DNA of 45,923 nucleotides from an uncultured Bacilli bacterium (GTDB taxonomy: Bacteria; Bacillota_I; Bacilli_A; RF39; UBA660): positions 1 to 45,923 of the forward strand of contig CALVZI010000009.1 of NCBI GenBank assembly GCA_944372485.1, written 5' to 3'. A program made the translations under genes and the position numbers. Position 1 is the first letter of the stretch. Each line of letters opens with the position of its first letter. Shown piece by piece: positions 14,064 through 39,910 of the stretch. The notes beneath the pieces were generated by a model. The model did not search any database and was not told where the DNA came from. It saw only the letters and a list, made by a program, of their open reading frames with translations.

Positions 14064-14119
14064 TTAAAAAGTATTATAACTAATTTATTTGCAAATTTTA
14101 ACTTAAGGAGTGTTATAGC

Positions 14120-19200: not shown

Positions 19201-20634
19201 GTGATTGTGAAAAAAAAGAAACAAAAGAAAAATTTAATTTTTAAAATAATTGCTGGGATATATTCAGCCCTTTTTATTGTATTTATGGGAGTATTATTAT
19301 ATTTAAATATAGTTCCTGATAAATACATGTTACCACTATCTATTGTAACAATTTTGATTTCTATTTTATTAGTATTTTTAATAATAAAGAAGAATATTAA
19401 AACTAAAATAAAATGGATTTGTGTTGTATTTATGTGTTTACTTTCTATTATTTATGGAATAGGAACATATTATATGTATACAACAATAAATTTTTTGGGT
19501 AAGTTAGATAATGTAACTAAACAAGTTGAAAAATATTATGTGGTTGTTAATAATGAATCTGATTTTAAAGATGAGAATGATTTAAAAAATGAAGAAATTA
19601 CAGTTTTAAATAAAAAGAATGATTTAGATAATGAAGCTTTAGATAAATTAAAAAAAGAATTATCTGTTACTTATAATGAAGTAGAAAATTTAAATGATAT
19701 TGAATCTTCATTAAAAGATAATGAACCTATATTTGTAAGTAGTTCACTTTATAATATATTATGTGAAAGTATGTATGAGATAGATGAATATAGTGAAATT
19801 CTTTATACAATTGAAGTTAGTAAGAAAGTAAGTAAAATTGAAAATAAAAAAGATGTTACTAATGAAGCATTTAATATTTATATAAGTGGGGCTGATAGTT
19901 CAGGAACTATTAATAGTATGGCTCGTAGTGATGTAAATATGTTAGTTACTATTAATCCTAAAACACATAAAATATTACTTACTTCAATTCCTCGTGATTA
20001 TTATGTTACACTTCATTCTTTTGGAGCTAAAGATAAATTAACACATGCAGGAATTTATGGAATAAATGAAAGTGTTTCAACTGTTGAAGATTTACTTGGC
20101 GTTGAAATAAATTATTATGCTCATGTTAATTTTACGACATTAATTAATATTGTTGATGTTATTGGTGGAATTGATGTATACTCTGATTATACATTTACAA
20201 CTCATGGTATGGGAGTAAAATATACTTTCTATGCTGGTAACAATACTTTAAATGGACAGAAAGCTTTAGCATTCGCTCGTGAACGTAAATCATTTGTTGA
20301 TGGAGATAAACAAAGAGTTAAAAATCAACAAAAAGTATTAAGTGCAATTTTAAATAAAGTTGCTAACAGTACAACAATTTTAACTAATTATTCTGATTTA
20401 TTAAATGCTGTTGGAAGTAGTTTCCAAACTAATATGTCACAAAGTGAGATTACTGCATTAGTAAAAAAACAACTTAATGATATGCCTAGTTGGACTATAG
20501 AAAATATTAGTTTAGATGGTAGTGGAAGTAATAATGTTACATATACATATGGAAATCAATTATTATATGTAATGGTTCCAGATGGAGATTCTGTATATGC
20601 TGCTCAAACCAAAATTAAAGAGGTTATGAATTAA
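19201..20634 (+). CDS. LytR-CpsA-Psr (LCP) family glycopolymer-peptidoglycan ligase
   Basis: N-terminal TM anchors, then ARSDVNMLVTINP...SIPRDYYV...KLTHA...ALAFARERK LCP domain blocks; GTG start. Confidence 0.85.
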   Translation: MIVKKKKQKKNLIFKIIAGIYSALFIVFMGVLLYLNIVPDKYMLPLSIVTILISILLVFLIIKKNIKTKIKWICVVFMCLLSIIYGIGTYYMYTTINFLGKLDNVTKQVEKYYVVVNNESDFKDENDLKNEEITVLNKKNDLDNEALDKLKKELSVTYNEVENLNDIESSLKDNEPIFVSSSLYNILCESMYEIDEYSEILYTIEVSKKVSKIENKKDVTNEAFNIYISGADSSGTINSMARSDVNMLVTINPKTHKILLTSIPRDYYVTLHSFGAKDKLTHAGIYGINESVSTVEDLLGVEINYYAHVNFTTLINIVDVIGGIDVYSDYTFTTHGMGVKYTFYAGNNTLNGQKALAFARERKSFVDGDKQRVKNQQKVLSAILNKVANSTTILTNYSDLLNAVGSSFQTNMSQSEITALVKKQLNDMPSWTIENISLDGSGSNNVTYTYGNQLLYVMVPDGDSVYAAQTKIKEVMN

Positions 20635-20745: not shown

Positions 20746-21978
20746 ATGATTCATGTAACAAGTGAAATAAAACCACTTAAAAAAGTTTTATTACATCGTC
20801 CTGGGAAAGAGTTACTTAATTTAACTCCAGATACACTAGAACGATTATTATTTGATGATATTCCTTATTTACCTGATGCTATTAAGGAACATGATGAATT
20901 TGCTTCAATATTGAGACAACAAGGAATTGAAGTTGTTTATCTTGAAGATTTAATGGCTGAAGTAATTGGTATATCAGATGAAATTAAAACAAAATTCCTA
21001 CGTCAATTTATTTATGAAGCAGGAATTCGTACACCAAAATATAAAAATTTGGTATTTGAATATTTATACAATATTAAAGATAATAAAAAATTAGTGTTAA
21101 AAACAATGGAAGGTATTCAAATTGGTGAATTAGATCGTGCTAAAAGAGAAATTGAAAAATCTTTAGTAGACTTAGTTAGTGAAGAATCTAAGTTTATTGC
21201 TGATCCAATGCCAAACTTATATTTTACACGTGACCCATTCGCAAGTGTTGGTCATGGTATAGCTTTAAATAAAATGTATTCTGTAACACGTAATCGTGAA
21301 ACAATTTACGCTGAATATATTTTTGAATATCATCCAGATTATGCTGGTGTAGATAAATACTATGATCGTTATTTACCACATCATATTGAAGGTGGGGATG
21401 TTCTTAATTTAAATGAACATGTTTTAGCAGTTGGATATTCACAACGTACAACAGCTGAAGCAATCGATCAATTAGCTAAAAATTTATTTAAAGATCCAGA
21501 ATGTAAAATAGATACCGTTTTAGCTTTTAATATTCCAAATTCACGTGCATTTATGCATCTTGATACTGTATTTACACAAATAGATGTAGATAAATTTACA
21601 TATCATCCAGGAATTATGGAAACACTTCAAGTATTTGAAATTACTGAAGGTGATATTCCAGAAAGTGATGAAGATTTAAATGTAAAAGAAATTAATGATT
21701 CACTAGAAAATATTTTAGAAACTTATCTAGGATATCCAGTTACACTTATTCCATGTGCTGGTGGAGATAAAGTAAGTGCTGAACGTGAACAATGGAATGA
21801 TGGTTCTAATACCCTTTGTATTGCTCCTGGAGTAGTAGTAGTATACAATCGTAATAATATTACTAATGAAGTATTACGTAAACATGGTATTAAAGTACTA
21901 GAAATGAATAGTGCTGAATTATCACGTGGTCGTGGTGGTCCAAGATGTATGAGTATGCCACTAGAAAGGGCCGATTAA
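20746..21978 (+). CDS. arcA: arginine deiminase
   Basis: 410 aa; [26 protein letters not shown] and the C-terminal catalytic [10 protein letters not shown] block. Confidence 0.95.
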
Positions 21979-21979
21979 T

Positions 21980-22969
21980 ATGAATTTAGCAGGTAGAGAT
22001 TTTTTAAAACTATTAGATTATTCGAAAGAAGAAATTTTATATTTAATAGAACTTTCTAATATATTTAAACAAAAGAAAAAAAACGGAGAGCCACATAATT
22101 ACTTACGTGGTAAAAATGTAGCTTTATTATTTGAAAAAGATTCAACAAGAACTCGTTGTGCATTTGAAGTTGCTGCTTATGATTTAGGTATGCATGTAAC
22201 TTATTTAGGACCTACAGGAAGTCAAATGGGTAAAAAAGAAAGTATTGCTGACACAGCTCGTGTTTTAGCTAGAATGTATGATGGTATTGAATATCGTGGT
22301 TTTAGTCAAGATATTGTTGAGGATTTAGCAAAATTTGCTGATGTACCAGTATGGAATGGACTTACTAATGAATTTCACCCAACACAAATGTTAGCTGATA
22401 TGCTTACAGTTAAAGAAAATTTTGGAACTCTTAAAAATTTAAACTTAGTATTTATGGGAGATGCTCGTAATAATGTTGGTAATTCATTAATGGTAGTATG
22501 TTCAAAATTAGGAGTTAATTTTACTTGTTGTGCACCAAAAGAATTATTTCCAAATAATGAATTAGTTGAACAATGCAAAGTGTTTGCTAATGAAAATGGA
22601 AGTACAATAACTTTAACAGAAAATGTGGAAGAAGGAGTTAAAGGAGCTCATGTAATTTATACTGATGTTTGGGTTTCAATGGGTGAAGATTCATCTATTT
22701 GGGAACAAAGAATTAATCAGTTAAAACCATATCAAGTAAATAAACATGCAATGGAACTTGCTGATCCAAAAGCTATTTTCTTACATTGTTTACCATCTTT
22801 CCATGATACAAATACAAAAATAGGAAAGGAGATACAAGAACAGTTTGGTTTAGAAGAAATGGAAGTAACTAACGAAGTGTTTGAATCAAATCAATCTAAA
22901 GTATTTGATCAAGCTGAGAATAGACTTCATACAATAAAAGCTGTTATGTATGCAACGTTAAAGAAATGA
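21980..22969 (+). CDS. arcB: ornithine carbamoyltransferase (catabolic)
   Basis: [32 protein letters not shown] motifs; located between arcA and arcC. Confidence 0.95.
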
Positions 22970-23922
22970 AAAAGAGGATTGTGATCGCGTTAGGGGGAAA
23001 CGCATTAGGAAAAACCCCAGAAGAACAATTAAAATTAGTTAAAAAAACAGCTAAAAGTATCATTGAACTTGCTATGGATGGCTTTGAAATTGTTGTAACA
23101 CATGGTAATGGGCCACAAGTTGGAATGATTAATTTAGCTATGGAAAATTCATATGAAGATGGTGATACACCAGCAATGCCTTTTGCTGAGTGTGGTGCAA
23201 TGAGTCAAGGTTATATTGGATATCACTTGCAACAAGCTATTCAAAGAGAAATTTTAAAACATAATTTAAGAAGAAGTTGTATAACTTTAATTACTCAAGT
23301 ATTAGTTGATAAAAATGATCCAGCATTTAAAGATCCAACAAAACCAATTGGAGACTTTTATACCAAAGCTCAGGCTTTAAAAATAACTAAAGAAAAAGGT
23401 TATGTAATGAAAGAAGATGCTGGACGTGGATATCGTCGTGTTGTTGCTTCTCCAAGACCTTTAAAAATAATTGAAGCAGGAGTAATTAGAGATTTACTTG
23501 AAGAACGTAATATTGTTGTTGCTGCTGGTGGAGGTGGAATTCCTGTTGTAAGAAAATGGAATTCACTACGTGGTATTGATGCTGTAATTGATAAAGATTT
23601 AACAAGTGCATGTTTAGCTGTTGATTTAAAAGCAGATATTTTCTTAATTTTAACAGCAGTTGATAAAGTATATTTAAATTATGGTAAATCAAGTCAAAAA
23701 GGTATTGATATAATGACTGTTAAAGAAGCTAAACAATATATTGAAGATAAACAATTTAGTAAAGGTAGTATGCTACCAAAAGTAGAAGCTTGTATGGAAT
23801 TTGTTAAACATCGTCGTACTGGACAAGCAATAATTACTTCTCTTGACCATGCCTTAGAAGCTCTTATGGGAAAAACAGGAACTGTTATAACTAGAAAGGG
23901 TGATGTATATGGCAAAAAGTAA
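22966..23922 (+). CDS. arcC: carbamate kinase
   Basis: [10 protein letters not shown]...[11 protein letters not shown]...AAGGGGIPV are the carbamate kinase family blocks; ATGA-type overlap with arcB. Confidence 0.95.
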
Positions 23923-25360
23923 GAGAAAAAAGCATGAGTTTTTAACAGCGTTCTCAATTATATTTATTTTAATATTTGGTTTAGGACTATTATCACATCT
24001 ACTTCCAAAAGCTGAGTTTGTAGGAGATGTAATAGTAAATGGTAGTGGTGTAGTAGGAGCATCTTTATCAGATATCTTACTTTCACCAATACTTGGTTTT
24101 GAAAATGCTATTGATGTATGTATATTTGTTCTTGTTTTAGGAGGTTTCTTAAAAGTTGTTGCTAATACGCAAGCTCTTGAAACAGGAATTAAAGTTTTAG
24201 TAAAAAAATTAAAAGGTAAAGAACTAGTATTAATTCCAATTTTAATGTTCTTATTCTCAATTGGTGGAACAACTTATGGAATGTTAGAAGAAACAGTTGG
24301 TTTCTATGCACTTTTATCTGCAACTATGGTAATGGCTGGAATGGATACTTTAGTTGCTTCAGCAATCGTTTTACTTGGAGCTGGTAGTGGTGTTTTAGGA
24401 TCTACTATTAATCCATTTGCGGTTGGTGTGGCAGTTAGTGCCTTACCAGAAGGATTAGTTGCTAATCAAGCATTAATTATTGGAATTGGAAGTTTACTTT
24501 GGTTAACTACATATCTTATTTCAACTTTATTTGTATTAAGTTATGCAAGAAAAGTTATAAAAAGAAAAGGTTCAACTTTCTTAAGCTTACGTGAAAGACG
24601 TAATATGGCTGCTGAATATGGAAAGAAAGATAACAAAGAAATTGCTAATGCTAAATTAAGTGGTAGTCAAAAAATCACTTTATGCTTATTCGCATTAACA
24701 TTTGTAGTTATGATTATTGGATTTATTCCATGGGAAGAATTTGGTATTTCAATCTTTACTTCATGGACAGCATGGTTAACAGGTGCACCTATTGGAAGTT
24801 GGTATTTCTATGATGCTGCTTTATGGTTCTTGTTAATGGCTATTATTATTGGTATATTAAATAAAGATGGAGAAAAGAAGTTTGTAGATTTATTCATCGA
24901 TGGTGCAGATGACATGGTTGGAGTAATATTAATTATTGCAATTGCTCGTGGAGCATCAGTATTAATGCAAAGTACATATTTAGATAATTATATTATCTAT
25001 AATGCTGCTGAATTACTACGAAATGTTCCAATTCAAATATTTACACCATTAAATTACATTTTACATGTAATATTATCAGTATTAGTTCCATCTAGTTCAG
25101 GACTTGCAACACTTTCAACTCCTATTATAGCTCCACTTGCTAGTGAGTTAGGATATAATGTTGAAAGCACTATAATGACAATGGTTGCTGCAAATGGTCT
25201 TGTTAACTTATTTACACCTACTTGTGGTGCAATTATGGGTGGACTTGCTTTAGCCAAGGTAGAATATCCAACATGGATACGTTGGGCCTTAAAAGTAATT
25301 ATTACAATTGCCATTGTAAATATTGTAATTCTTACATTTGCTACTTTAGTATTATCATAA
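23909..25360 (+). CDS. arcD: YfcC / C4-dicarboxylate-anaerobic-carrier family membrane protein, likely arginine-ornithine exchanger of the arc operon (ArcD of streptococcal type)
   Basis: About 480 aa polytopic protein, last gene of the arc operon, overlaps arcC. RBS GAAAGGGTG precedes ATG 23909 (the track ORF starts at GTG 23900). Confidence 0.6.
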   Translation: MAKSKRKKHEFLTAFSIIFILIFGLGLLSHLLPKAEFVGDVIVNGSGVVGASLSDILLSPILGFENAIDVCIFVLVLGGFLKVVANTQALETGIKVLVKKLKGKELVLIPILMFLFSIGGTTYGMLEETVGFYALLSATMVMAGMDTLVASAIVLLGAGSGVLGSTINPFAVGVAVSALPEGLVANQALIIGIGSLLWLTTYLISTLFVLSYARKVIKRKGSTFLSLRERRNMAAEYGKKDNKEIANAKLSGSQKITLCLFALTFVVMIIGFIPWEEFGISIFTSWTAWLTGAPIGSWYFYDAALWFLLMAIIIGILNKDGEKKFVDLFIDGADDMVGVILIIAIARGASVLMQSTYLDNYIIYNAAELLRNVPIQIFTPLNYILHVILSVLVPSSSGLATLSTPIIAPLASELGYNVESTIMTMVAANGLVNLFTPTCGAIMGGLALAKVEYPTWIRWALKVIITIAIVNIVILTFATLVLS

Positions 25361-29097: not shown

Positions 29098-29427
29098 ATG
29101 AATCAATCAGTTGTAGTAGGTAGATTAGTTCGTGATCCAGAATTAAAGACAACTGACAATGGTAATTCAGTAACATCTGTAACTTTAGCTGTTCCAAGAA
29201 ATTATAAAAATATTGATGGTGAATATGAATCAGATTTTATTTCTTGTGTTTTATGGAAAGGTATTGCTGAAAATACTGTTGCTTATTGTAAAAAAGGAGA
29301 TTTAATTGCGGTTAAAGGTCGTATTCAATCACGTATTTATGAAGATAATGAAGAACAAAAAAAATATGTAATGGAAGTAATTGCTGAAAAAGTTAGTTTT
29401 CTATCAAGTAAGAAAAAAGAAGATTAA
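29098..29427 (+). CDS. ssb: single-stranded DNA-binding protein, short form lacking the acidic C-terminal tail (SsbB-like)
   Basis: MNQSVVVGRLVRDPELKTTDNGNSVTSVTLAV...W is the OB-fold SSB signature. The 109-aa protein ends SSKKKED, not D-D-D-I/L-P-F. Not in the rpsF-ssb-rpsR context. Confidence 0.85.
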   Translation: MNQSVVVGRLVRDPELKTTDNGNSVTSVTLAVPRNYKNIDGEYESDFISCVLWKGIAENTVAYCKKGDLIAVKGRIQSRIYEDNEEQKKYVMEVIAEKVSFLSSKKKED

Positions 29428-29621
29428 TTGTTATAATCTTCATAAAATAGGTCATCAGGTTTTAAATTAAATAAAGCACTTATTTTGATTGCTACATCAT
29501 AATAAAGTTTGCGTTGTTTCTTTTCAATTTGCCAATAGTGAGTTTTACTGATATTTAAAATCTTTGCCATATCACCACAACTCATATTAGCTTTTGAACG
29601 TATTTGTTTTAATTTAGACAT
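29424..29621 (-). CDS. small XRE-family helix-turn-helix regulator (65 aa, Cro-like)
   Basis: MSCGDMAKILNISKTHYWQIEKKQRKL is an HTH_XRE pattern; convergent 4-nt overlap with the ssb stop. Confidence 0.75.
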   Translation of the reverse strand: MSKLKQIRSKANMSCGDMAKILNISKTHYWQIEKKQRKLYYDVAIKISALFNLKPDDLFYEDYNN

Positions 29622-29761: not shown

Positions 29762-30118
29762 GTGTTAATAGGTCAACGAATAAAAGAGGCGCGATTAAAA
29801 AAAGGGTATACACAAAGTGATTTGGGCAATTTACTTAATGTATCAAAAGTTTCAGTTTGTGGTTATGAAAGAGGTACACGAACACCAACCCTTGATATAT
29901 TTAATAAATTAACAGAAGTTTTAGATATTACACCAGATTATGCTTTAGGTAATGACGTTGGTGTTGTATATGAGGATGAAGCAAAATATACAACTAAGTT
30001 ATCTAAAGATGATATTAAAATAATAAATGAATTAAAGAAAAGTCCTAAATTATATAATAAATTTTGTGAAGATCCAAAAAGAATTATTGATGTTATAAAT
30101 CGTAAAATAAATTTATAA
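29762..30118 (+). CDS. XRE-family helix-turn-helix regulator (118 aa, cI-like)
   Basis: IGQRIKEARLKKGYTQSDLGNLLNVSKVSVCGYERGTRTPTLD is a canonical HTH_XRE; GTG start after RBS GGAGGTG. Confidence 0.8.
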   Translation: MLIGQRIKEARLKKGYTQSDLGNLLNVSKVSVCGYERGTRTPTLDIFNKLTEVLDITPDYALGNDVGVVYEDEAKYTTKLSKDDIKIINELKKSPKLYNKFCEDPKRIIDVINRKINL

Positions 30119-30184: not shown

Positions 30185-31459
30185 ATGAATATAGTAGATA
30201 TTATTAATAAAAAAAGAAAAAAAATTAGTTTAACTAAAGAAGAAATTGAATATGTTATAACTAATTATGTTTCTGAAAACATAACAGATTATCAAATGAG
30301 TGCACTACTTATGGCAATAACTATTAATGGTATGAGTGATGAGGAAACAATATATTTAACAGATGCTATGTTAAATAGTGGAGATAAGATTGATTTAACG
30401 TCTATTTCTGGAATTAAGTTAGATAAGCATTCAACTGGTGGTGTTGGTGATAAAACGACATTGATACTTGCTCCTATTGTTGCTGCAACAGGCTTAAATA
30501 TGGCTAAAATGAGTGGACGTGGTTTAGGGTTTACTGGTGGAACAATTGATAAATTAGAAGCTATTCCTGGTTTAAAAACTGATATGTCATTAAATGATTT
30601 TAAGAAACAAGTTGAAGAAATTCATGTAGCTATTGCTAGTGGTTCTAAAAAGTTAGTTCCAGCTGATAAAAAAATGTATGCATTACGCGATGTTACGGCA
30701 ACTGTTGAATCAATTCCTTTGATTGCTTCAAGTATTATGAGTAAGAAATTAGCTAGCGGAGCAGATGTTTTAGTAATTGATGTAAAAGTTGGTAATGGGG
30801 CTTTAATGAAAAATAAAGAGGATGCTAAAAAACTTGCTAATTTAATGATAAAAATTGGTAAGAACTACAATAAAAAAGTAGTTTGTATTTTAACTAATAT
30901 GTTTGAGCCACTTGGAGAAGCTATTGGAAATTCTTTAGAAGTAGAGGAAAGTATAAATGTTCTACAAGGAAAAGGACCTAAAGATATTACAAGTCTTGTA
31001 ATCTTTTTAGCAATTCAAATGGTTAAAATAGGTAAAGATATTACAATAGAAGAAGCTACCAAAGAAGTTCGTAATGTTTTAGTTACAGGAAAAGCTTTAA
31101 ATAAATTTTATGAAGTAATTAAATATCAACATGGAAATATTAAAGAAATGGTTATTTCAGATAAAGTAATTTCTATAAAAGCTAATAAGACAGGATTTAT
31201 AACTGAAATAAATACAGAAGCAATTGGTGAATTATCACGTAAGCTTGGAGCTGGACGTTATCAAAAAGAAGATGTAATTGATTCTAAGGTAGGTCTTAAA
31301 ATACTAAAAAAAGTAGGAGACTTCGTAATTAATGATGAAGAATTAGTTAAAGTATATTTAGGAGAAAAAGATATTAATATTAATGAAATATTAGATTGTT
31401 TTACTATAAATGAACATTATCACAAACCTAATCCATTAATAATAGAAACAATTGTTTAA
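30185..31459 (+). CDS. pdp: pyrimidine-nucleoside (thymidine) phosphorylase
   Basis: DYQMSALLMAI..., DKHSTGGVGDKT, MSGRGLGFTGGTIDKLE and LRDVTATVESIPLIASSIMSKK are the family blocks. Confidence 0.9.
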   Translation: MNIVDIINKKRKKISLTKEEIEYVITNYVSENITDYQMSALLMAITINGMSDEETIYLTDAMLNSGDKIDLTSISGIKLDKHSTGGVGDKTTLILAPIVAATGLNMAKMSGRGLGFTGGTIDKLEAIPGLKTDMSLNDFKKQVEEIHVAIASGSKKLVPADKKMYALRDVTATVESIPLIASSIMSKKLASGADVLVIDVKVGNGALMKNKEDAKKLANLMIKIGKNYNKKVVCILTNMFEPLGEAIGNSLEVEESINVLQGKGPKDITSLVIFLAIQMVKIGKDITIEEATKEVRNVLVTGKALNKFYEVIKYQHGNIKEMVISDKVISIKANKTGFITEINTEAIGELSRKLGAGRYQKEDVIDSKVGLKILKKVGDFVINDEELVKVYLGEKDININEILDCFTINEHYHKPNPLIIETIV

Positions 31460-31539
31460 CGTCAAATATTGTCAAATAAAATCTATTTACTTGATAATAA
31501 ATATTTTATAGTATATTATAATAATAGGGAGTGATATTT

Positions 31540-31746
31540 ATGATATATCCATCAATTGATAAAATGTTAACACAAATTGGTTCTAAATATTTATTAGTTA
31601 ATATAATTTCTAAAAGAGCCAAAGAAATGGAAGTAACAAAACATTATCAATTAAAAGAAGAAGAGTATGTATCAAAGAAAAATATTGGTCGTGCTCTTGA
31701 GGAATTATCTAAAAATTTAATCCACATAAAAGAGAATAATGATTAA
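31540..31746 (+). CDS. rpoZ: DNA-directed RNA polymerase subunit omega
   Basis: MIYPSIDKMLTQIGSKYLLVNIISKRAKEM is the RpoZ N-terminal signature. RBS GGGAGTGA lies 4-5 nt before ATG 31540. Confidence 0.8.
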   Translation: MIYPSIDKMLTQIGSKYLLVNIISKRAKEMEVTKHYQLKEEEYVSKKNIGRALEELSKNLIHIKENND

Positions 31747-31805
31747 TTATTCTTTTTTTGTACACTTATTAGATTTATTTACATATATTAAAATAGGTGA
31801 TTAAC

Positions 31806-32171
31806 ATGAATACAAAAGAAAAATTTAAACTTTTTGTAAAATCACATCCTAGTTTATTAAAGTATGTAAAAAATGAACAAATGACTTGGCAAAAATTTTA
31901 TGAATTATATGATATGTATGGTGAAGATGAAAATATTTGGAAAGAATACTTAACAACCACAACACAACAAGTAAATGAAACTAAAAAAAGTAATGTATCT
32001 TCGTTAGGTGAACTCATGGGATTTGTTAAAAATATTGACTTAGATAGTGTTGAAAATGGAATAAATAGTTTACAAAGAGTACTAGGTGTTTTACAAGATT
32101 TTGGAACTAATAAAGCAACAACAGAAAATAGTTATAAGCCTAGACCCCTTTATAAACATTTTGAAGATTAA
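31806..32171 (+). CDS. YlbD-like protein
   Basis: FKLFVKSHPSLLKYVKNEQMTWQKFYELYDMYGEDENIWKEY resembles Bacillus YlbD; synteny with ylbE-like and rsmD. Confidence 0.6.
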   Translation: MNTKEKFKLFVKSHPSLLKYVKNEQMTWQKFYELYDMYGEDENIWKEYLTTTTQQVNETKKSNVSSLGELMGFVKNIDLDSVENGINSLQRVLGVLQDFGTNKATTENSYKPRPLYKHFED

Positions 32172-32392
32172 TGATATTAGATGTTCAATTTAAAATAAAA
32201 AACAATCCCTATTATCAAAGATATATTCGTGAAAATTCTTATTGGTATAAAATATTAAATAGAGAACCTAATCGTTTTAAAGAGTTTGAAGAACAAGCTA
32301 AAGAAAGGTATGGATTACGTCCTGCTGATAAACTAAATCGTATGTTAGAAACAGTTGAAATGTTACAAACAATTATGTCATCTTTTAAATAA
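32171..32392 (+). CDS. YlbE-like protein
   Basis: QRYIRENSYWYKILNREPNRFKEFE resembles Bacillus YlbE (L-R-E-x-P-Y-W-Y-R-x-L-S-R-x-P); ATGA-type junction with the upstream gene. Confidence 0.6.
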   Translation: MILDVQFKIKNNPYYQRYIRENSYWYKILNREPNRFKEFEEQAKERYGLRPADKLNRMLETVEMLQTIMSSFK

Positions 32393-32421
32393 TTGTGGTA
32401 AAATATTACTTAGGTGATATA

Positions 32422-32958
32422 ATGCGTATTATTAGTGGTAAATATAAAGGAAGAAATATTTTAGGATATAATATTATTGGTACTAGACCAACAATGGATC
32501 GTGTACGTGAATCTTTATTCGCAATGATTCAAAACAAAGTAAAAAATTCAGTTTGTTTAGATCTATTTGCTGGAAGTGGTTCATTAGGATTTGAAGCTTT
32601 AAGTAATGGAGCTTTAAAATGTTATTTTGTTGATAAAAATATTAAAGTAATTAACACTTTAAAAAAGAATTATAATAATTCAAAAATAGAAGAAGAATGT
32701 TATTTTATAAATAATGATTATTTAAAAGCTTTACAACAATTTAAAAGACAAGGAATAAAATTTGATATTATTTTCTTAGATCCACCATATGATGATAATT
32801 TAATTACTCCAACGTTAAAATCTATTTATGAATTAGATTTACTATCAGATGAGGGCATTATTATTTGTGAATATGAAAAAGAAAAGATTGAGTTTAACTA
32901 TGAAGTTATAAAAGAAAAAAAATATGGTGATAAATACATAACTATTTTAAAAAAATAG
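32422..32958 (+). CDS. rsmD: 16S rRNA (guanine966-N2)-methyltransferase RsmD
   Basis: MRIISGKYKGR...RPTMDRVRESLF...LDLFAGSGSLGFEALSNGA...IFLDPPY. RBS TAGGTGA precedes ATG 32422. Confidence 0.85.
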   Translation: MRIISGKYKGRNILGYNIIGTRPTMDRVRESLFAMIQNKVKNSVCLDLFAGSGSLGFEALSNGALKCYFVDKNIKVINTLKKNYNNSKIEEECYFINNDYLKALQQFKRQGIKFDIIFLDPPYDDNLITPTLKSIYELDLLSDEGIIICEYEKEKIEFNYEVIKEKKYGDKYITILKK

Positions 32959-33025
32959 TTTTTTTTTGATAAAAAAAAGGAAATAGAAAAGTTTTAGAGT
33001 ATATAACTAATGAGGGGGTGAAAAA

Positions 33026-35107
33026 GTGTTTAAACATTTTCCTTTTATAAAACAATTAAATGAAAAAGATTGTGGTGTATGCTCATTAGCTATGATAATA
33101 AAATATTATGGTGGTAATTATACTTTAAATGAACTTAGAAAATTAACTAATACTAATAATCATGGCACAACAGCTTATCATTTAATTGAAGCAAGTAAAA
33201 GAATTGGTTTTACTGCAAAAGGAATAAAATGTAAATTTGATGATTTAAATAAAGATAACTTTGTACTACCATGTATTGCTCATTTAAAATATGAAAGTAG
33301 TGGTCATTATATCGTTATATATAAAGTCGATTTTAAAAAAAAGACAATTGTTATAGCTGATCCAGCTAGTAAAATTAAAACAATAATTTTTGATGATTTT
33401 ATAAAAGATTGGAATGAAGTATTAATATTCTTATATCCTATAACAAAACTTGAAATACATAAAAATACGCCAATATATAAAATTATATTTAGTTTATTTA
33501 AACAAAATAAAAAATTATTAATAAATATAATTATATTATCATTATTAATAACACTGTCAAACATTATCACTTCCTTCTATTTAAAGACAATTGTTGAATC
33601 ATTAAAGCAATATTATTTTTTACAAAACTTAATATTAATTTCTCTGTTTTTTGGAACTTTTTATGTATTTAAAAATATAACTTTATATTATCGAAATATT
33701 GTTATTATTTATTTAAATCAAAAAATAGACTTAACATTAGTAATAGATGTTATTAAACACTTAATTCATCTTCCTTATCTTTATTATCACAACCATACTA
33801 CTGGTGATGTTATTCAAAGAATCAGTGATGCAATGACAATAAAAAATTCTTTTACTAATATTTTAATTTTTATTACAACTGATTTAATATTATTTTTATC
33901 TTCTTTATTATTAATAATTTTTATTAATGAAAAATTAACTTTAATACTACTAATTTATATTTTTATTTATTTTTGTTTATATTTATTATTTAAAAATATT
34001 ATTGTAACAACACTAAATAATTGTAAACAAGAAGAAGCACATCTAAACACTTCACTAACAGAATCTTTAATTGGTATTAATAGTATTAAAGGATTACACT
34101 TAGAAACTAATTTTGATAATAAGTTAGAAACTAATTTAATTAATTATTCATTAAAACAAAAAGGATTAGGGAAGATATTAAATTTAAGAAGTTTAATTTA
34201 TAATTTATTAAAAGATATAAACTTTATAATATTTATAAGTTTTATTATGTATTTAATAGTTCAAAAAGAATTAAGTACAAATAGTATCCTCATTATTCAA
34301 AGTTTGTTATTTAATATAATGAATAGTTTAGATAGTTTTACTAATTTAGATGTTGAACTTAGTAATTTAAAATTATCTTTACAAAGATTAATTGATTTAC
34401 AAGAAGAGAAATTAAAAGATGGTGTAATTAATAAATTATATTTAAAAGAGATTAATATTAAGAAATTATCTTATAGTAATGATAAGAATGTTCAAGTATT
34501 AAAAGATATAACGCTAAATATTAAGAAAGGAGAAAAGATAGTACTTGTTGGAACAAGTGGTAGTGGAAAGAGTACACTTTTAAAACTATGTTCTAATTTT
34601 TATATTAGTAAGCGGGATAAAATATTTTTTAATGATTTTGATTACTTAGATTATAGTGATAAAGCACGTAAAAAAAATATTACGTATTTATCTCAAGATG
34701 AATATTTATTTACGGGAACGATACTAAATAATATAATTATGAATCGAAGTTATGATGAATTAATATTAAAAAAAGTAATAAAAATATGTAAAATAGATTT
34801 AATTGTAAAAGATAAGAATTTGGGACTTAATACTTTAATTGAAGAAGGTGGAGTAAATTTATCAGGAGGAGAAAAGAATAGAATAATACTTGCCCGGTAT
34901 CTTTTAAAAGCGACAAATTATATTTTTATAGATGAAGGATTAAGTCAAATAGATATAAATATGGAAAGACAAATATTAAAAGATATGTTTAAGTATTTTA
35001 GGGATAAGACATTTGTAATAGTATCACATCGCTTAGATAATTTAGATTTATTTGATCGAATGATTAAATTAAAAGAAGGACAAGTTATTTTAGATGTATC
35101 AAAATAG
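33026..35107 (+). CDS. bacteriocin/double-glycine peptide ABC exporter with N-terminal C39 peptidase domain (ComA/LagD/LcnC type)
   Basis: C39 domain has QLNEKDCGVCSLAMIIKYYGG (catalytic Cys), SGHYIVIYK (His) and IADP (Asp). Six TM segments. Walker A GTSGSGKST, signature LSGGEKNRIILAR, Walker B IFIDEGLSQID, H-loop VSHR. GTG start after GAGGGGGTG. Confidence 0.9.
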   Translation: MFKHFPFIKQLNEKDCGVCSLAMIIKYYGGNYTLNELRKLTNTNNHGTTAYHLIEASKRIGFTAKGIKCKFDDLNKDNFVLPCIAHLKYESSGHYIVIYKVDFKKKTIVIADPASKIKTIIFDDFIKDWNEVLIFLYPITKLEIHKNTPIYKIIFSLFKQNKKLLINIIILSLLITLSNIITSFYLKTIVESLKQYYFLQNLILISLFFGTFYVFKNITLYYRNIVIIYLNQKIDLTLVIDVIKHLIHLPYLYYHNHTTGDVIQRISDAMTIKNSFTNILIFITTDLILFLSSLLLIIFINEKLTLILLIYIFIYFCLYLLFKNIIVTTLNNCKQEEAHLNTSLTESLIGINSIKGLHLETNFDNKLETNLINYSLKQKGLGKILNLRSLIYNLLKDINFIIFISFIMYLIVQKELSTNSILIIQSLLFNIMNSLDSFTNLDVELSNLKLSLQRLIDLQEEKLKDGVINKLYLKEINIKKLSYSNDKNVQVLKDITLNIKKGEKIVLVGTSGSGKSTLLKLCSNFYISKRDKIFFNDFDYLDYSDKARKKNITYLSQDEYLFTGTILNNIIMNRSYDELILKKVIKICKIDLIVKDKNLGLNTLIEEGGVNLSGGEKNRIILARYLLKATNYIFIDEGLSQIDINMERQILKDMFKYFRDKTFVIVSHRLDNLDLFDRMIKLKEGQVILDVSK

Positions 35108-35546
35108 AACTTATATAATAAATCAAAAATTACCTAAAATGATTTATTTTATTATTTTTATATCACTCTTTACTTTAATATTTGTTTTAATTTTTATTAT
35201 TATTCCTATAAAAAGAATAATTTCATTCGATGGTTTTGTTGTGTTAGAAGATAATAGATATTATATTAAAATATATGTTGGTGATGAAGATCTAAAAAAG
35301 ATTAATTGCCATAATGTTATAGTAGATGAAAAAAAGACAAAGTTAGATTATTTTACTATTAAAGAAGCTTATAAAGTAGATAATAGTTTAGAAATTTATC
35401 ACGAAGTTTTTTTAAAAATTGAAATTCCAAAAGAAAAAAGAGTTGAAAATTATAAACTTGAAGTAATGTTTATTCAACCAAAAACGACATACTTAAAAGA
35501 AATAATTAATTATGTGAAACGGGGGTTATATGAAGGAATTAACTAA
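35094..35546 (+). CDS. single-pass membrane accessory protein of the exporter (miniature HlyD-like?)
   Basis: Overlaps the exporter stop by 14 nt. N-terminal TM IYFIIFISLFTLIFVLIFIIIPI then about 110 external residues. The ends resemble HlyD beta-domain blocks, but the assignment is tentative. Confidence 0.6.
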   Translation: MYQNRTYIINQKLPKMIYFIIFISLFTLIFVLIFIIIPIKRIISFDGFVVLEDNRYYIKIYVGDEDLKKINCHNVIVDEKKTKLDYFTIKEAYKVDNSLEIYHEVFLKIEIPKEKRVENYKLEVMFIQPKTTYLKEIINYVKRGLYEGIN

Positions 35547-35670
35547 AAATGAATTATTAGATATCGAAGGTGGTTCTCTTAGTCTAGGAGCTTGTTTAGC
35601 TATTGGGGCTGGAATAGTATTTCTACTTGGAGTTATAGATGGCTTGGTTAGGCCTTTGGAATGCAGGTAA
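35530..35670 (+). CDS. double-glycine-leader peptide 1 (bacteriocin precursor candidate, 46 aa; not in the ORF track)
   Basis: MKELTKNELLDIEGG / SLSLGACLAIGAGIVFLLGVIDGLVRPLECR. The leader fits L-12 E-8 L-7 I-4 G-2 G-1. RBS ACGGGGG. Overlaps the accessory gene end by 17 nt. Confidence 0.75.
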   Translation: MKELTKNELLDIEGGSLSLGACLAIGAGIVFLLGVIDGLVRPLECR

Positions 35671-35673
35671 GAT

Positions 35674-35841
35674 ATGAAAGTATTAAAAGATGAAGAACTA
35701 TTTAATATTGTAGGTGGCTCTATAAGTGCCAGTATGATAAATTATTTAGTAAGAGGAATAGAAGCTATTTTTGAATTAGGGCAAAGTTTTGGAACAGCCA
35801 TCAGAAGAGCTAAAGAAAATAAAATATGTCCCTTAGAATAA
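35674..35841 (+). CDS. double-glycine-leader peptide 2 (bacteriocin precursor candidate, 55 aa; not in the ORF track)
   Basis: MKVLKDEELFNIVGG / SISASMINYLVRGIEAIFELGQSFGTAIRRAKENKICPLE. Same leader pattern. RBS AGGTAAG. Starts 3 nt after the peptide 1 stop. Confidence 0.75.
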   Translation: MKVLKDEELFNIVGGSISASMINYLVRGIEAIFELGQSFGTAIRRAKENKICPLE

Positions 35842-35963
35842 AAAATTATATTATAAAAATATTAATATTTATAATAACATTATCACTACTAGGATATGTT
35901 ATAAATTTCATTTTTAATATTGGAGTAATATTAGGAACTTATCTTCGTTATATAATGAATTAA
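35826..35963 (+). CDS. 45-aa hydrophobic peptide, candidate bacteriocin immunity protein (not in the ORF track)
   Basis: MSLRIKNYIIKILIFIITLSLLGYVINFIFNIGVILGTYLRYIMN. Overlaps peptide gene 2 by 16 nt and ends at the operon terminator; weak RBS. Confidence 0.4.
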   Translation: MSLRIKNYIIKILIFIITLSLLGYVINFIFNIGVILGTYLRYIMN

Positions 35964-35986
35964 AGCAATTTTTATTGCTTTTTTTC
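35962..35986 (+). terminator. rho-independent terminator of the bacteriocin operon
   Basis: AAAGCAAT-TTTT-ATTGCTTT followed by a T-run. Confidence 0.65.
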
Positions 35987-35994
35987 TTTACAAC

Positions 35995-36008
35995 CGAAAC
36001 TTTGTTCG
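35995..36008 (+). promoter_or_regulatory. LexA operator (Cheo/SOS box) of dinB
   Basis: CGAAACTTTGTTCG matches CGAAC-N4-GTTCG at 9 of 10 defined positions and abuts TATAAT 36010-36015. Confidence 0.65.
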
Positions 36009-36032
36009 TTATAATATATATAAGGTGGTTAG

Positions 36033-37238
36033 ATGAAACGAATTGTAATGCACATAGATGTTAATAATGCTTTCTTGTCATGGACTGCAATTGATTTACT
36101 TAATCATGGTAGTAAGTATGATATTAGAAATAGTTATGCAGTAATTGGTGGTGATGAAGAAGCTAGAAGGGGAATTGTTCTTGCTAAATCAATGCCAGCT
36201 AAAAAAATGGGCGTAGTAACAGCTGAAACTCTTTATAGTGCACGAAAAAAATGTCCTTCTTTAAGAGTTTATCCGCCAAACTATAAATGGTATCAATATA
36301 TGTCTAATAGTTTATTTGAACTGTTAAAAGAATATACCCCTGATATTGAAATAGTTTCTATTGATGAATGTTATTTAGAATATACTAATGTTATGAAATT
36401 GTATGGTGATCCAATTGAATTTGCTAAAAAGATTCAAAAAGAAATTAATGATACTTTAAAATTTACGGTAAACATTGGTATTGCAGAAAATAAGCTTTGT
36501 GCAAAAATGGCTTCAGATTTTTTAAAACCAAATAAAATACATACTTTATTTAGTAATGAAATAAAAGAAAAAATGTGGCCACTACCAATAAATAAGCTTT
36601 TTGGTATTGGTAAACAAACCAGTAAAAAATTAATTGCTATAAATATAAAAACAATTGCTGATTTAGCTAATGCTGATCCAAATTTTTTATATAAATATTT
36701 TAAAAATCAAACTTCTAGAATGATTGAAATTGCTAATGGAATAGATAATGGTCTAGTTGATTCAAGCGTCAGTGCACCTAAAGGAATAAGTAATTCAACA
36801 ACATTATCGCATGATGTTGTAAATCGTGAAGAATTAGAAAAAATAATAAGTGCAATAGTAGATAATGTTAGTTTAGCTCTTAGAAAAGAAAAAAAGTATG
36901 CAAATGTAGTAGGGGTTATGTTAAAAGATAATTTTTTTAAAACTTTTTCACATCAAAAAAAATTAAAAAATGCAACAGATATAACTATTGAAATTAAAAA
37001 AACTGCTTTAGAATTATTTAGAGAAATGTATCATGGTGAAGCAATTCGTTTAGTTGGTGTAAGATTGGATCAATTAACAGATACTACTATGCATCAAGTT
37101 TCTCTTTTTGAAAATATACAAGAAAGAGATGAAAATAAAAAATTGGATACAACAATTGATACATTAAAAAAACGATTTGGTAATGATATTATAAAAAATG
37201 GTATTCAAAAAGAAAGAAATATTAAAAGAAAATATTAA
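36033..37238 (+). CDS. dinB: DNA polymerase IV (Y-family, DinB-type)
   Basis: HIDVNNAFLSW, VSIDECYLEYT (Asp-Glu), IGIAENKLCAKMASD, LFGIGKQTSKKL (HhH), little-finger C-terminus; SOS box upstream. Confidence 0.85.
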   Translation: MKRIVMHIDVNNAFLSWTAIDLLNHGSKYDIRNSYAVIGGDEEARRGIVLAKSMPAKKMGVVTAETLYSARKKCPSLRVYPPNYKWYQYMSNSLFELLKEYTPDIEIVSIDECYLEYTNVMKLYGDPIEFAKKIQKEINDTLKFTVNIGIAENKLCAKMASDFLKPNKIHTLFSNEIKEKMWPLPINKLFGIGKQTSKKLIAINIKTIADLANADPNFLYKYFKNQTSRMIEIANGIDNGLVDSSVSAPKGISNSTTLSHDVVNREELEKIISAIVDNVSLALRKEKKYANVVGVMLKDNFFKTFSHQKKLKNATDITIEIKKTALELFREMYHGEAIRLVGVRLDQLTDTTMHQVSLFENIQERDENKKLDTTIDTLKKRFGNDIIKNGIQKERNIKRKY

Positions 37239-37272
37239 AATATGGTATAATATTAAAAAAGGTAAGGATGGT

Positions 37273-37746
37273 ATGAAAAAGAATAGTGTGAAAAATAAGA
37301 ATAAAAAAAATGACAAACTTGAAAAAATTAAAAATAATAAGACAATAATTGTAGTTGCAATTATTTTATTAGTAGTATTAGGTAGTGTAATTTACTATTT
37401 TACAAAAGATTTTACAAAAGAAATTACTTTAGATAACTATTTTGAATTACGTAATAAAGAATCGAATAGTTATATATTTATTTATGATGAGACAACAACA
37501 TCTGAAGAAATGTTAGAATTAGTAGAGAATGTAGCTAAAAAAGAACGTATAATGGTAAAAATTTTAGATTTTTCAAATATTAATAAAGCTGATACAGAAA
37601 AGTTTGCAAAGGCTGATGATTATACAAAAGCAGGGGTAATTATTCCAATGATTATGGATTTAGAAAATGGAAAAATTGATCGTTATGTTGCTGGTCATAT
37701 TAATGAAGAAGAATTAATAAAATTTATGGACATCAAGGAGAAGTAA
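37273..37746 (+). CDS. membrane-anchored protein, possibly a thioredoxin-like fold without CxxC
   Basis: Basic N-terminus, TM IIVVAIILLVVLGSVIYYF, then a pattern SYIFIYDETT...GVIIPMIMDLENGKI reminiscent of thioredoxin strands, but with no Cys pair. RBS AAGGATGG precedes ATG 37273. Confidence 0.45.
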   Translation: MKKNSVKNKNKKNDKLEKIKNNKTIIVVAIILLVVLGSVIYYFTKDFTKEITLDNYFELRNKESNSYIFIYDETTTSEEMLELVENVAKKERIMVKILDFSNINKADTEKFAKADDYTKAGVIIPMIMDLENGKIDRYVAGHINEEELIKFMDIKEK

Positions 37747-37747
37747 A

Positions 37748-39910
37748 ATGAATCAAAATATTATTTTAGAAATAAGTAAAAATTTAAATATAAAAGAAAA
37801 ACAAGTTGAAACAACATTAAAATTATTAGAAGAAGGGAATACAATCCCTTTTATTGCGCGTTATCGTAAAGAAGCGACAGGTAATTTAAATGAAGAACAA
37901 ATCAGAGAAATTAATGAAGTTTATATTTATCAAGTAAATTTATTAAAAAGAAAAGAAGATGTAATTAGATTAATTGATGAAAAAGGTTTAATGACTGATG
38001 AATTAAAAGCTAAGATTATGGCATCTAGTAAATTAGTTGAAGTAGAGGATTTATATAGACCATATAAAGAAAAGAAAAAAACAAAAGTTACGGAGGCTAT
38101 TGCTTTAGGATTAGAGCCACTTGCTAAAAAAATCATGTCATGTCCTACTAATGGTAATATTGATTTACTTGTTAAACCATATTTAAATGATAAAGTAAAA
38201 ACTAAAGAAGAAGCTTTAACTGGAGCTAAATATATTATTGCTGAATATATAAGTGATAATGCTTTTTATCGTAAATGGATAAGAAGACATACTTATTTTA
38301 ATAGTAATGTGGAATCAAAAAAGAAGAAAAGTGCTGTTGATGAACTTAAAACATATGAAATGTATTATGATTATGTAGAACCTTTAAAAACGATTAAATC
38401 ATATCGTATTCTTGCGATTAATCGTGGGGAAAAGGAAAAAGTTTTAACTGTATCACTTAAGTTAGATGAACAAGAAGTCATTAATTTCTTAGAAGAAAAA
38501 GTAATTAAGAATAAAGAATCTTTTACTAAAGAATATATTGTAGATGCAATTAAAGATAGTTATAAACGTTTAATTAAACCTAGTATTGAAAGAGAATTAC
38601 GTGCCGAAGCTACAGAAAAAGCAGAAGAGGTTGCTATTGCTAATTTTGGACTAAATTTAGAAAAACTATTAATGCAACCACCAATGAAAGATAAAGTAGT
38701 ATTAGGCTTTGATCCAGCGTATCGTACAGGTTGTAAATTAGCGGTTATTGATGAAACGGGAAAACCAGAAAAAATAACAGTTATTTATCCACATGAACCT
38801 AAGAATCAATATGAAGAAAGTAAAAAAGAATTATTAAGATTAATTGATGAATATAAAATAGATATTATAGCTATTGGAAATGGTACTGCATCACGTGAAA
38901 GTGAAGCTTTAGTTGCTGATGTAATAAATAGTTGTAAAACAAGAAAAGTTGAATATATCATTGTAAATGAAGCCGGTGCTAGTGTGTATTCAGCCTCTAA
39001 ATTAGCAATTTCTGAATTTCCAGATTTACATGTTGAAGAACGTAGTGCTATAAGTATTGGAAGAAGATTACAAGATCCATTATCAGAACTTGTTAAAATT
39101 GATCCACAAAGTATTGGAGTAGGACTATATCAACATGACGTTTCTAATAAAAGATTAACTGAGTCTTTAGACTTTGTTGTTAGTAAATCTGTAAACCAAG
39201 TAGGTGTTAATATTAATACTGCTAGTGCATCACTTTTAAAATATGTTTCTGGTTTAACTAAAAAGAATATTGATAAAATATTAGAATATCGTAATAAATT
39301 TGGGAAAATAACTAATCGTGAAGAAATAAAAAAGAAAAAGATTTTAAGTGATAAAACTTATACGCAAGCAATTGGTTTCTTGCGAATACCAGATGCTGTT
39401 AATATTTTAGATAGAACAGGTATTCACCCTGAAAGTTATGATATTACTAATAATTTATTAAAAGCTTTAGATAGTAATTTAGCTATGATTGGAACAAAAG
39501 AATTAAATGAAAAATTAGAAAATTTAGATATAAATAAATATGTAGATATTTTAAAAACTGATTATTATACATTAGAAGATATTGTTAAAACATTATTAAA
39601 ACCAAATCGCGATCCACGTGATGATATGCCAAAACCATTACTAAAAAAAGATATTTTAAAACTTGAAGATTTAAAAGTAGGGATGAAGCTACAAGGAACA
39701 GTTAGAAATGTTGTTGATTTTGGAGCATTTATTGATATTGGTATTAAAAATGATGGCTTAGTTCATATATCTAAAATAACTGATAAATATATAAAACATC
39801 CAAAAGAAGTATTAAATGTAGGTGATATTGTTGATTGTTATGTTGATGAAATTAACTTAGAAAAGAAAAAAGTTTCATTATCTTTGCTAGAACCAAAAGG
39901 ACAAAATTGA
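37748..39910 (+). CDS. tex: Tex-like transcription accessory protein (YqgF/HhH/S1 domains)
   Basis: IPFIARYRKEATG, GFDPAYRTGCKLAVID (YqgF-like), GVGLYQHDV, VNINTAS (HhH), C-terminal S1 domain GTVRNVVDFGAFIDIG...GLVHISK. Confidence 0.9.
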   Translation: MNQNIILEISKNLNIKEKQVETTLKLLEEGNTIPFIARYRKEATGNLNEEQIREINEVYIYQVNLLKRKEDVIRLIDEKGLMTDELKAKIMASSKLVEVEDLYRPYKEKKKTKVTEAIALGLEPLAKKIMSCPTNGNIDLLVKPYLNDKVKTKEEALTGAKYIIAEYISDNAFYRKWIRRHTYFNSNVESKKKKSAVDELKTYEMYYDYVEPLKTIKSYRILAINRGEKEKVLTVSLKLDEQEVINFLEEKVIKNKESFTKEYIVDAIKDSYKRLIKPSIERELRAEATEKAEEVAIANFGLNLEKLLMQPPMKDKVVLGFDPAYRTGCKLAVIDETGKPEKITVIYPHEPKNQYEESKKELLRLIDEYKIDIIAIGNGTASRESEALVADVINSCKTRKVEYIIVNEAGASVYSASKLAISEFPDLHVEERSAISIGRRLQDPLSELVKIDPQSIGVGLYQHDVSNKRLTESLDFVVSKSVNQVGVNINTASASLLKYVSGLTKKNIDKILEYRNKFGKITNREEIKKKKILSDKTYTQAIGFLRIPDAVNILDRTGIHPESYDITNNLLKALDSNLAMIGTKELNEKLENLDINKYVDILKTDYYTLEDIVKTLLKPNRDPRDDMPKPLLKKDILKLEDLKVGMKLQGTVRNVVDFGAFIDIGIKNDGLVHISKITDKYIKHPKEVLNVGDIVDCYVDEINLEKKKVSLSLLEPKGQN

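Follow-up and report, generated by a model that had tools for sequence, protein, structure and literature searches.

A five-gene operon on the forward strand of contig CALVZI010000009.1 (assembly GCA_944372485.1), analysed over a stretch of 45,923 nucleotides (the window) from a very AT-rich uncultured "Bacilli" assembly, probably encodes a class IIb-type two-peptide bacteriocin system; we put the probability of this reading at roughly 70%. At its core stand two small adjacent genes, here called alpha and beta, which are real and conserved. They are preceded by genes for a peptidase-containing exporter and an accessory protein, and followed by a third small open reading frame (ORF3) and a terminator. 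The features of the locus are:

33026-35963, + strand: five-gene operon (C39-ABC exporter, accessory protein, alpha, beta, ORF3) with a terminator at its end
33012-33018, + strand: Shine-Dalgarno sequence GAGGGGG of the exporter gene, read in the sequence; the GTG start codon is at 33026
33026-35107, + strand: peptidase-containing ATP-binding cassette (ABC) transporter (PCAT), 693 aa, with C39 peptidase, transmembrane (TM) domain and ATPase
35094-35546, + strand: accessory protein, 150 aa; gene overlaps of 14 nt (exporter) and 17 nt (alpha)
35521-35525, + strand: Shine-Dalgarno sequence GGGGG of the alpha gene, read in the sequence and invariant among aligned relatives
35530-35670, + strand: alpha precursor, 46 aa, ATG start; leader MKELTKNELLDIEGG, mature peptide SLSLGACLAIGAGIVFLLGVIDGLVRPLECR
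35674-35841, + strand: beta precursor, 55 aa, ATG start; leader MKVLKDEELFNIVGG, mature peptide SISASMINYLVRGIEAIFELGQSFGTAIRRAKENKICPLE
35826-35963, + strand: ORF3, candidate immunity protein, 45 aa, hydrophobic; its ATG lies within the Ile-Cys codons near the end of beta
35962-35989, + strand: intrinsic terminator, AAAGCAAU-UUUU-AUUGCUUU followed by a U-run, at the end of the operon

The two peptide genes had been proposed in a sequence-only reading of the window, which gave their coordinates, translations and arrangement correctly: alpha overlaps the end of the accessory gene by 17 nt, beta begins 3 nt after the alpha stop codon in a common reading frame, and the C39 peptidase domain lies 2.5 kb upstream, in the C39-ABC gene that starts at 33026. 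ORF3 and the intrinsic terminator were absent from that reading. Both leaders comprise 15 residues and agree position by position with the double-glycine (GG) consensus (L-12, E-8, L-7, I-4, G-2, G-1). A six-frame scan of the 45.9-kb window with the pattern [LIVMF]x3[ED][LIVMF]x2[LIVMF]xGG returned two matches, solely at the alpha and beta ORFs, compared with a mean of 0.075 in 200 shuffles. The mature peptides also have the properties described earlier. Mature alpha (31 aa, 3124.75 Da monoisotopic, charge about 0) is very hydrophobic, with a grand average of hydropathy (GRAVY) of 1.44, and resembles a plain TM helix. Mature beta (40 aa, 4424.34 Da monoisotopic, charge +0.5) is amphipathic with a hydrophobic moment of 0.5-0.6. 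Each peptide carries a GxxxG motif, GVIDG in alpha and GQSFG in beta. For beta, AlphaFold2 (AF2) predicted a leader helix at residues 6-13, one long helix at residues 19-47 bearing the GxxxG motif and an RR pair, and a flexible C-terminal tail carrying the Cys.

Disruption or absence of the frames in relatives had been named as a point that could speak against the pair; both peptide ORFs are intact on most related contigs of the same and neighbouring species, and some beta alleles begin with GTG. Alpha and beta are under strong purifying selection: between the window and a close relative (L026), whose DinB and RsmD proteins are 94% identical to those of the window, the ratio of nonsynonymous to synonymous substitution rates (dN/dS) was 0.13 for alpha and 0.08 for beta, compared to 0.34 for the exporter, 0.43 for the accessory gene and 0.70 for ORF3. 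Two natural knock-outs were observed. In the species-representative assembly CALVVE01 (L009/L017:3022-5103), exporter codon 333 is changed from TGT to TGA, and at L013:2322-2456 a TGC to TGA change in alpha deletes its invariant Cys. These nonsense alleles may be non-producer variants or sequencing errors. We also considered genetic code 4 (TGA = Trp), under which alpha and beta would be fused in TGA-ending alpha alleles. This was rejected, since the host uses the standard code: TGA ends four genes of the window, including tex, and TGA-ending alpha alleles are therefore not read-through fusions.

Class IIb bacteriocins are recognised by an adjacent gene pair, a double-glycine leader of 15-30 residues, a dedicated ABC transporter that removes the leader, and a GxxxG or GxxxG-like motif in both peptides (PMC2850506). 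Further features of the class are an immunity gene within the operon and an accessory protein encoded beside the transporter (PMC2850506), for which ORF3 and the 150-aa membrane protein are the candidates. As read from its sequence, the window holds adjacent alpha and beta genes, GG leaders, a C39-ABC exporter and GxxxG in both peptides. These four hallmarks, all testable in silico, were found, which supports the two-peptide class IIb interpretation put forward in the sequence-only reading. Lactococcin G, plantaricin EF/JK, carnobacteriocin XY and ABP-118/salivaricin P share with the window adjacent GG-leader genes and a C39-ABC exporter, next to which the window has a candidate accessory gene (PMC2850506), as well as a GxxxG motif per peptide, a helical beta peptide (here predicted) and a gene for a small membrane protein downstream (PMC2850506, PMC6957408). 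Differences from these known systems are found in beta, which shows no sequence similarity to known class IIb peptides beyond the leader, in the accessory protein (150 aa, without an HlyD-type signature) and in the chromosomally fixed locus.

Among curated models, alpha passes NCBIfam TIGR03949 (class IIb lactobin A/cerein 7B) with 24.0 bits at a curated cut-off of 21.5 (E 2.4e-5), and 40 of 55 sequences of the alpha family match this model at E<=0.01. The TIGR03949 family is, like alpha, glycine-rich, hydrophobic and GG-led, but the matched part extends no further than mature residue 21, counted after the leader, which it includes; the family-defining C-terminal block FxxG(V/L)xDGxxRPLxC lies outside it. 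Beta has no match to TIGR03949 at E<=1 and reaches 15.1 bits with the NCBIfam leader model TIGR01847, just under the cut-off of 15.7. Both peptides missed NF038034 (lactococcin G-beta/enterocin 1071B; cut-off 37 bits), alpha with 13.1 and beta with 12.7 bits.

The exporter was assigned by its Pfam matches to Peptidase_C39 (1.2e-35), ABC_membrane (9.6e-26) and ABC_tran (6.4e-22). Its best NCBIfam model, TIGR01193 (1.9e-113), scores 380 bits and thus stays under the 524-bit cut-off, which makes it a divergent member of the PCATs. It aligns over its full length with PCAT1 of Clostridium thermocellum (4RY2, E 1.2e-87) and ComA of Streptococcus (8HF4), with which it shares the three-domain architecture (E ~1e-87). 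Q10 and C16 (QxxxxDCG), the His of GHY and the Asp of ADP are in register with the catalytic residues of PCAT1 and ComA; judged by this alignment, the C39 peptidase is intact. Identity to PCAT1 and ComA is about 30-40%, as judged by eye from the alignment, and the exporter evolves fast within the group, with 29-43% identity between species.

The accessory protein has zero family matches in Pfam and NCBIfam. Its predicted structure (AF2; mean confidence score pLDDT 69) consists of an N-terminal TM helix, a beta-rich domain, which we infer to be located outside the membrane, and a C-terminal helix. Searching this model against the PDB with Foldseek yielded nothing below E = 0.1; the weak matches above this value include the adaptor-protein beta-barrels ZneB, AcrA, MexA and EmrA among generic small barrels, which leaves an HlyD-like origin hypothetical. 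At the corresponding place, 49 of 72 related loci encode a homologue of 123-155 aa, and the gene is missing in about 30%, for example in L024.

When alpha, beta and the accessory protein were used as queries in word-index searches, only close relatives came up. The orphan status hinted at by these searches was overturned by an exhaustive search, in which a beta profile was scored against 1.84 billion representatives and matched 313 clusters at E<=1e-3 (36 at E<=1e-10). All of these are about 50-57 aa long and GG-led, with the consensus xISxxxINAxxRGIxxxxxLGRSLGSAIRRxxxGxxCPx; the ten clusters that were looked up had no informative source names. The earlier statement that neither mature sequence is a named bacteriocin stands, but the peptides are not unique: they belong to a large conserved family.

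A scan for the beta motif GRSLGSAI in one genome per GTDB species yielded 69 loci. Most of them are in uncultured gut assemblies labelled Bacilli, Tenericutes, Mollicutes or Erysipelotrichaceae, and others in Ca. Fimihabitans, Ca. Faecisoma and Coprobacillus sp. CAG:605; a few records labelled otherwise, e.g. Muribaculaceae, are taken to be mislabelled bins. A C39-ABC gene lies directly upstream in all 69 loci, and an alpha-type gene immediately precedes beta in 68 of them (in L043, alpha is about 850 nt upstream). The converse scan with the alpha motif DGxxRPLKCN alone detected 242 species-level genomes, all of them uncultured gut Bacilli/"Tenericutes" assemblies. All 79 loci fetched from this set have a beta-family gene downstream (hidden Markov model scores of 54-100 bits), followed by an ORF3-family gene in 70. 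Overall, the order alpha-then-beta was found in 152/152 loci examined.

Across 128 distinct alpha-beta pairs, Asp37, Gly38, Pro42 and Cys45 of alpha are invariant, and Phe31, Gly34 and Arg41 nearly so; the GxxxG glycines of alpha are present in 126/128 (G34) and 128/128 (G38) pairs. In beta, both GxxxG glycines and the C-terminal Cys are found in 128/128 pairs, and Arg45 is nearly invariant. Exactly one Cys is present in 115/128 alpha and 122/128 beta sequences. The window's own alpha has a second Cys, and the alpha of L024 a single one. Mutual-information covariation among alpha, beta and ORF3 exceeds that of permuted pairings but was rejected as evidence for contacts, because it is confounded by shared descent. 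In the literature searched, we found neither the family motifs nor such a locus tied to RF39-type bacteria, and no experimental study of this gene set; the supplements of a 2025 gut class II bacteriocin mining study, IIBacFinder (PMC12648112), may list the peptides as predictions.

ORF3 has a basic N-terminus and one TM helix, followed by a beta-like GxxxG[ST]xxR motif. The ORF3-type proteins of relatives measure 47-62 aa, their GxxxG[ST]xxR block is often followed by ...G..C, and in most loci the start codon lies 12-22 nt ahead of the beta stop codon. An ORF3-family gene follows beta in 89/128 distinct loci. Both glycines and the Arg of the motif are invariant in a 32-sequence alignment, and among 89 distinct sequences they are kept in 89, 89 and 87, respectively. 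Comparing the C-terminal half of ORF3 with that of mature beta, hhalign gave a probability of 94% (E 1.4e-7, 29 columns), and no homology was found between ORF3 and alpha (probability 0.2%).

ORF3 is also the fastest-evolving gene of the operon, with 51% identity where the peptides retain 85-87%. Two loci of the window's own species (L001:2781-4804 and L002) carry an alternative allele with DNA identities of 99% for alpha, 95% for beta and only 70% for ORF3. Both loci also have an insertion between ORF3 and dinB that encodes a 583-aa MsbA-like ABC half-transporter lacking a C39 domain; it could provide an extra immunity or export function. Rapid evolution and allelic replacement within a species fit the expectation for an immunity determinant. 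ORF3 has no homology to a known immunity protein, but it shares position, size and a single TM helix with the CbnZ type (PMC6957408): CbnZ (42 aa, N-in/C-out), BrcI (53 aa) and AbpIM (55 aa) are proven class IIb immunity proteins with a single TM helix, encoded directly downstream of the peptide genes (PMC6957408). For gallocin A, immunity via resemblance to the toxin peptides has been proposed from structure models (PMC10100652). Based on the homology to beta, the CbnZ-type position and this mimicry proposal, we infer that ORF3 may confer immunity, as a decoy of beta that is anchored in the membrane.

In three loci (L100:5157-5294, L101:2930-3067 and L071:3402-3524), a third peptide with its own GG leader follows beta. 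Among them is MSNEELMSVNGG|RLNITISYSYNSVMGYLYTLGRRIGTYFNRLFH, with a GRRIGT motif similar to beta and ORF3. These GG-led peptides suggest that ORF3 and beta-like peptides may interconvert via gain or loss of a leader.

By established PCAT biology, the exporter would cleave the leaders behind Gly-Gly and export the 31-aa alpha and the 40-aa helical beta, assisted by the 150-aa single-pass membrane protein, which might possibly also contribute to immunity. By analogy with lactococcin G and the plantaricins, alpha and beta would pack via GVIDG and GQSFG into a membrane-spanning helix pair, which would permeabilise related bacteria, probably through a membrane-protein receptor. ORF3, with one TM helix in a probable N-in/C-out orientation, would expose a replica of the C-terminal half of beta (GxxxG[ST]xIR...C). 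Within the membrane of the producer it would therefore probably compete with beta, either for alpha or for the receptor.

The cysteines set this system apart, as alpha and beta have one invariant Cys each, in contrast to the Cys-free peptides of the best-studied class IIb systems (PMC10100652). For these invariant C-terminal residues, either a disulfide between alpha and beta or a role as essential free thiols is conceivable. The closest parallel in kind is gallocin A of Streptococcus gallolyticus (GllA1/GllA2/GIP), which is likewise a Cys-containing, weakly charged two-peptide system with an immunity peptide encoded by a third gene (PMC10100652). Mimicry of the toxin peptides is predicted for its immunity peptide GIP, which has been proposed to act by competition (PMC10100652). 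The gallocin peptides, however, have two Cys each and form helical hairpins stapled by an intramolecular disulfide (PMC10100652), whereas the peptides considered here mostly have a single Cys and beta is predicted to be one long helix, unlike members of the gallocin A-type hairpin subclass. An intramolecular bridge of this type is impossible for single invariant cysteines. The resemblance between toxin and candidate immunity protein is visible at the level of sequence profiles and confined to the C-terminal half of beta, while that of gallocin A comes from structure models (PMC10100652). A class IIb pair with an intermolecular disulfide was not found in the literature searched.

We regard it as a tentative and rather doubtful possibility that these genes represent an undescribed, vertically inherited two-peptide subclass of at least 240 RF39/"Tenericutes"-type species, with an alpha-beta heterodimer joined through Cys after export and a membrane-anchored paralogue of the C-terminal half of beta, ORF3, conferring immunity by capturing alpha or the receptor. 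Within the class IIb type, we count the system as a variant and not simply as one more member: neither Pfam nor NCBIfam contains the beta and ORF3 families, the accessory protein does not resemble those described, alpha and beta have one invariant Cys each, and the candidate for immunity is a beta paralogue.

Several observations count against a bacteriocin system. All carriers are uncultured. Beta matches Pfam and NCBIfam models weakly and through its leader, with no curated bacteriocin model matching beyond it, and a search of PDB sequences with the beta profile gave spurious weak matches (TetQ, ARX1) and zero solved class IIb peptides. Classical class IIb peptides are cationic, and those of the window are almost uncharged. 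The accessory proteins of known systems are of the HlyD type and roughly 450 aa long; the one found here has a third of that length and no homology to them detectable with Pfam/NCBIfam or Foldseek. A recognisable ORF3 is missing from about one third of the related loci. Finally, bacteriocin loci are usually variable accessory islands, so that a fixed site and peptides better kept than their exporter, as the dN/dS values indicate, are unusual. A position immediately behind ylbD-ylbE-rsmD is shared by 30 of 69 species, whose RsmD proteins reach no more than 50-60% identity, which indicates long vertical inheritance at a fixed site; the downstream neighbour varies (dinB in the window, rpsU or others elsewhere).

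The last two points, together with the occurrence across one uncultured group (at least 242 species-level genomes), the likeness of mature alpha to a plain TM helix and the motif that ORF3 has in common with beta, would also fit a system whose exported peptides serve the producer itself, as an envelope or membrane component or a kin-recognition device, with alpha, beta and ORF3 assembling in the cell's own membrane as part of lineage-wide housekeeping. We consider this unlikely. To our knowledge, no housekeeping role is known for GG-leader peptides. The nonsense codons in the exporter of a species-representative assembly and in alpha of another contig imply that the locus is dispensable in nature, ORF3 and the accessory gene are each missing from about a third of the loci, and the whole architecture matches that of bacteriocin operons (PMC2850506).

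It is also quite improbable that alpha and beta are two independent one-peptide class IId bacteriocins (or that one only is active) which use the same exporter without depending on each other. The same alpha-beta order in 152/152 loci and the conserved GxxxG and invariant Cys in each peptide, a signature of a co-functioning pair (PMC2850506), argue for joint action; what favours independence is the third GG-leader peptide held by some loci (L071, L100, L101). Such multi-bacteriocin loci with several GG-leader peptides are common in general. A role of either or both peptides as PCAT-exported quorum-sensing pheromones (ComC/BlpC/PlnA type) is highly improbable: although PCATs export pheromones too and both peptides give weak matches to the Pfam ComC leader model (11.7 and 14.8 bits), these scores are below the cut-off of 20.4 bits, no histidine kinase or response regulator is present among the family-assigned genes at 30185-39910 (two ORFs there, 35094-35546 and 37198-37746, have no family match), action at the membrane is suggested by the conserved GxxxG and by the single-TM ORF that follows, and mature alpha, with 31 aa and a GRAVY of 1.44, is far too hydrophobic for a diffusible signal.

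The operon is flanked upstream by pdp, rpoZ, ylbD, ylbE and rsmD (the flank next to the operon spans 31797-32958 of the window) and downstream by dinB, an ORF without family match and tex. The terminator forms an 8-bp hairpin of -10.7 kcal/mol (RNA fold; z = -4.87, with 0/200 shuffles equally stable) and is kept in the alignment of relatives; a simple scan overlooked it because its stem has just 2 G-C pairs. A TTTACA-17-TATAAT promoter for dinB comes after it. A consensus promoter scan of the AT-rich window is uninformative, with 50 sites found and 49.9 expected. An Rfam scan of the whole window returned zero RNA families. A mobile-element origin was considered and rejected: beta had no tblastn match in plasmid and phage collections, and the GC content of the locus (0.21-0.22) is comparable to that of its surroundings, without anomaly.

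The remainder of the window gives some insight into the host. A wall teichoic acid cluster (10411-16549 and 19201-20634) comprises four consecutive genes for TagF-like CDP-glycerol glycerophosphotransferases, one of them fused to a GT1 glycosyltransferase, and a LytR-CpsA-Psr (LCP) gene. The presence of teichoic acid and LCP genes indicates that this "Tenericutes-like" host is a walled Gram-positive bacterium. An arginine deiminase pathway block at 20746-25360 encodes arginine deiminase, ornithine carbamoyltransferase, a 318-aa ORF and a DcuC-type carrier. About 3 kb upstream of the operon and without obvious link to it lies a divergent pair of small ORFs, 29424-29621 (- strand; 65 aa, helix-turn-helix-like by eye) and 29762-30118 (+ strand; 118 aa, an Xre-type helix-turn-helix protein, HTH_3). 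The ORF at 37198-37746 encodes 182 aa with an N-terminal TM helix and no Pfam match, and overlaps the end of dinB by 41 nt; its counterparts in close relatives are called at 137, 154 and 167 aa.

Systems of this kind are well known, but this one is widespread, conserved and chemically simple, and therefore appealing for experiments. The carriers are known, among the loci retrieved, from metagenome assemblies alone, and we found nothing on how these low-GC gut Bacilli compete. The peptides, unmodified and of 31 and 40 aa, can be synthesised and thus offer a direct experimental handle on a compact, conserved system. Beta and ORF3 match no Pfam or NCBIfam model, and annotation with these libraries therefore leaves both unnamed; one profile each would annotate hundreds of genomes. 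The single invariant Cys per peptide poses a clear biochemical question, and a Cys-joined heterodimer, if true, would be the first disulfide-linked two-peptide bacteriocin. If the bacteriocin reading holds, the homology between ORF3 and beta would provide a sequence-based test of mimicry immunity, so far proposed only from gallocin A structure models, and synthetic peptides could be of use as narrow-spectrum agents or as tools for selective enrichment and culturing. As a long-standing chromosomal fixture, if it is one, the system could be among the chief factors in competition between strains of a prevalent uncultured lineage of the human gut.

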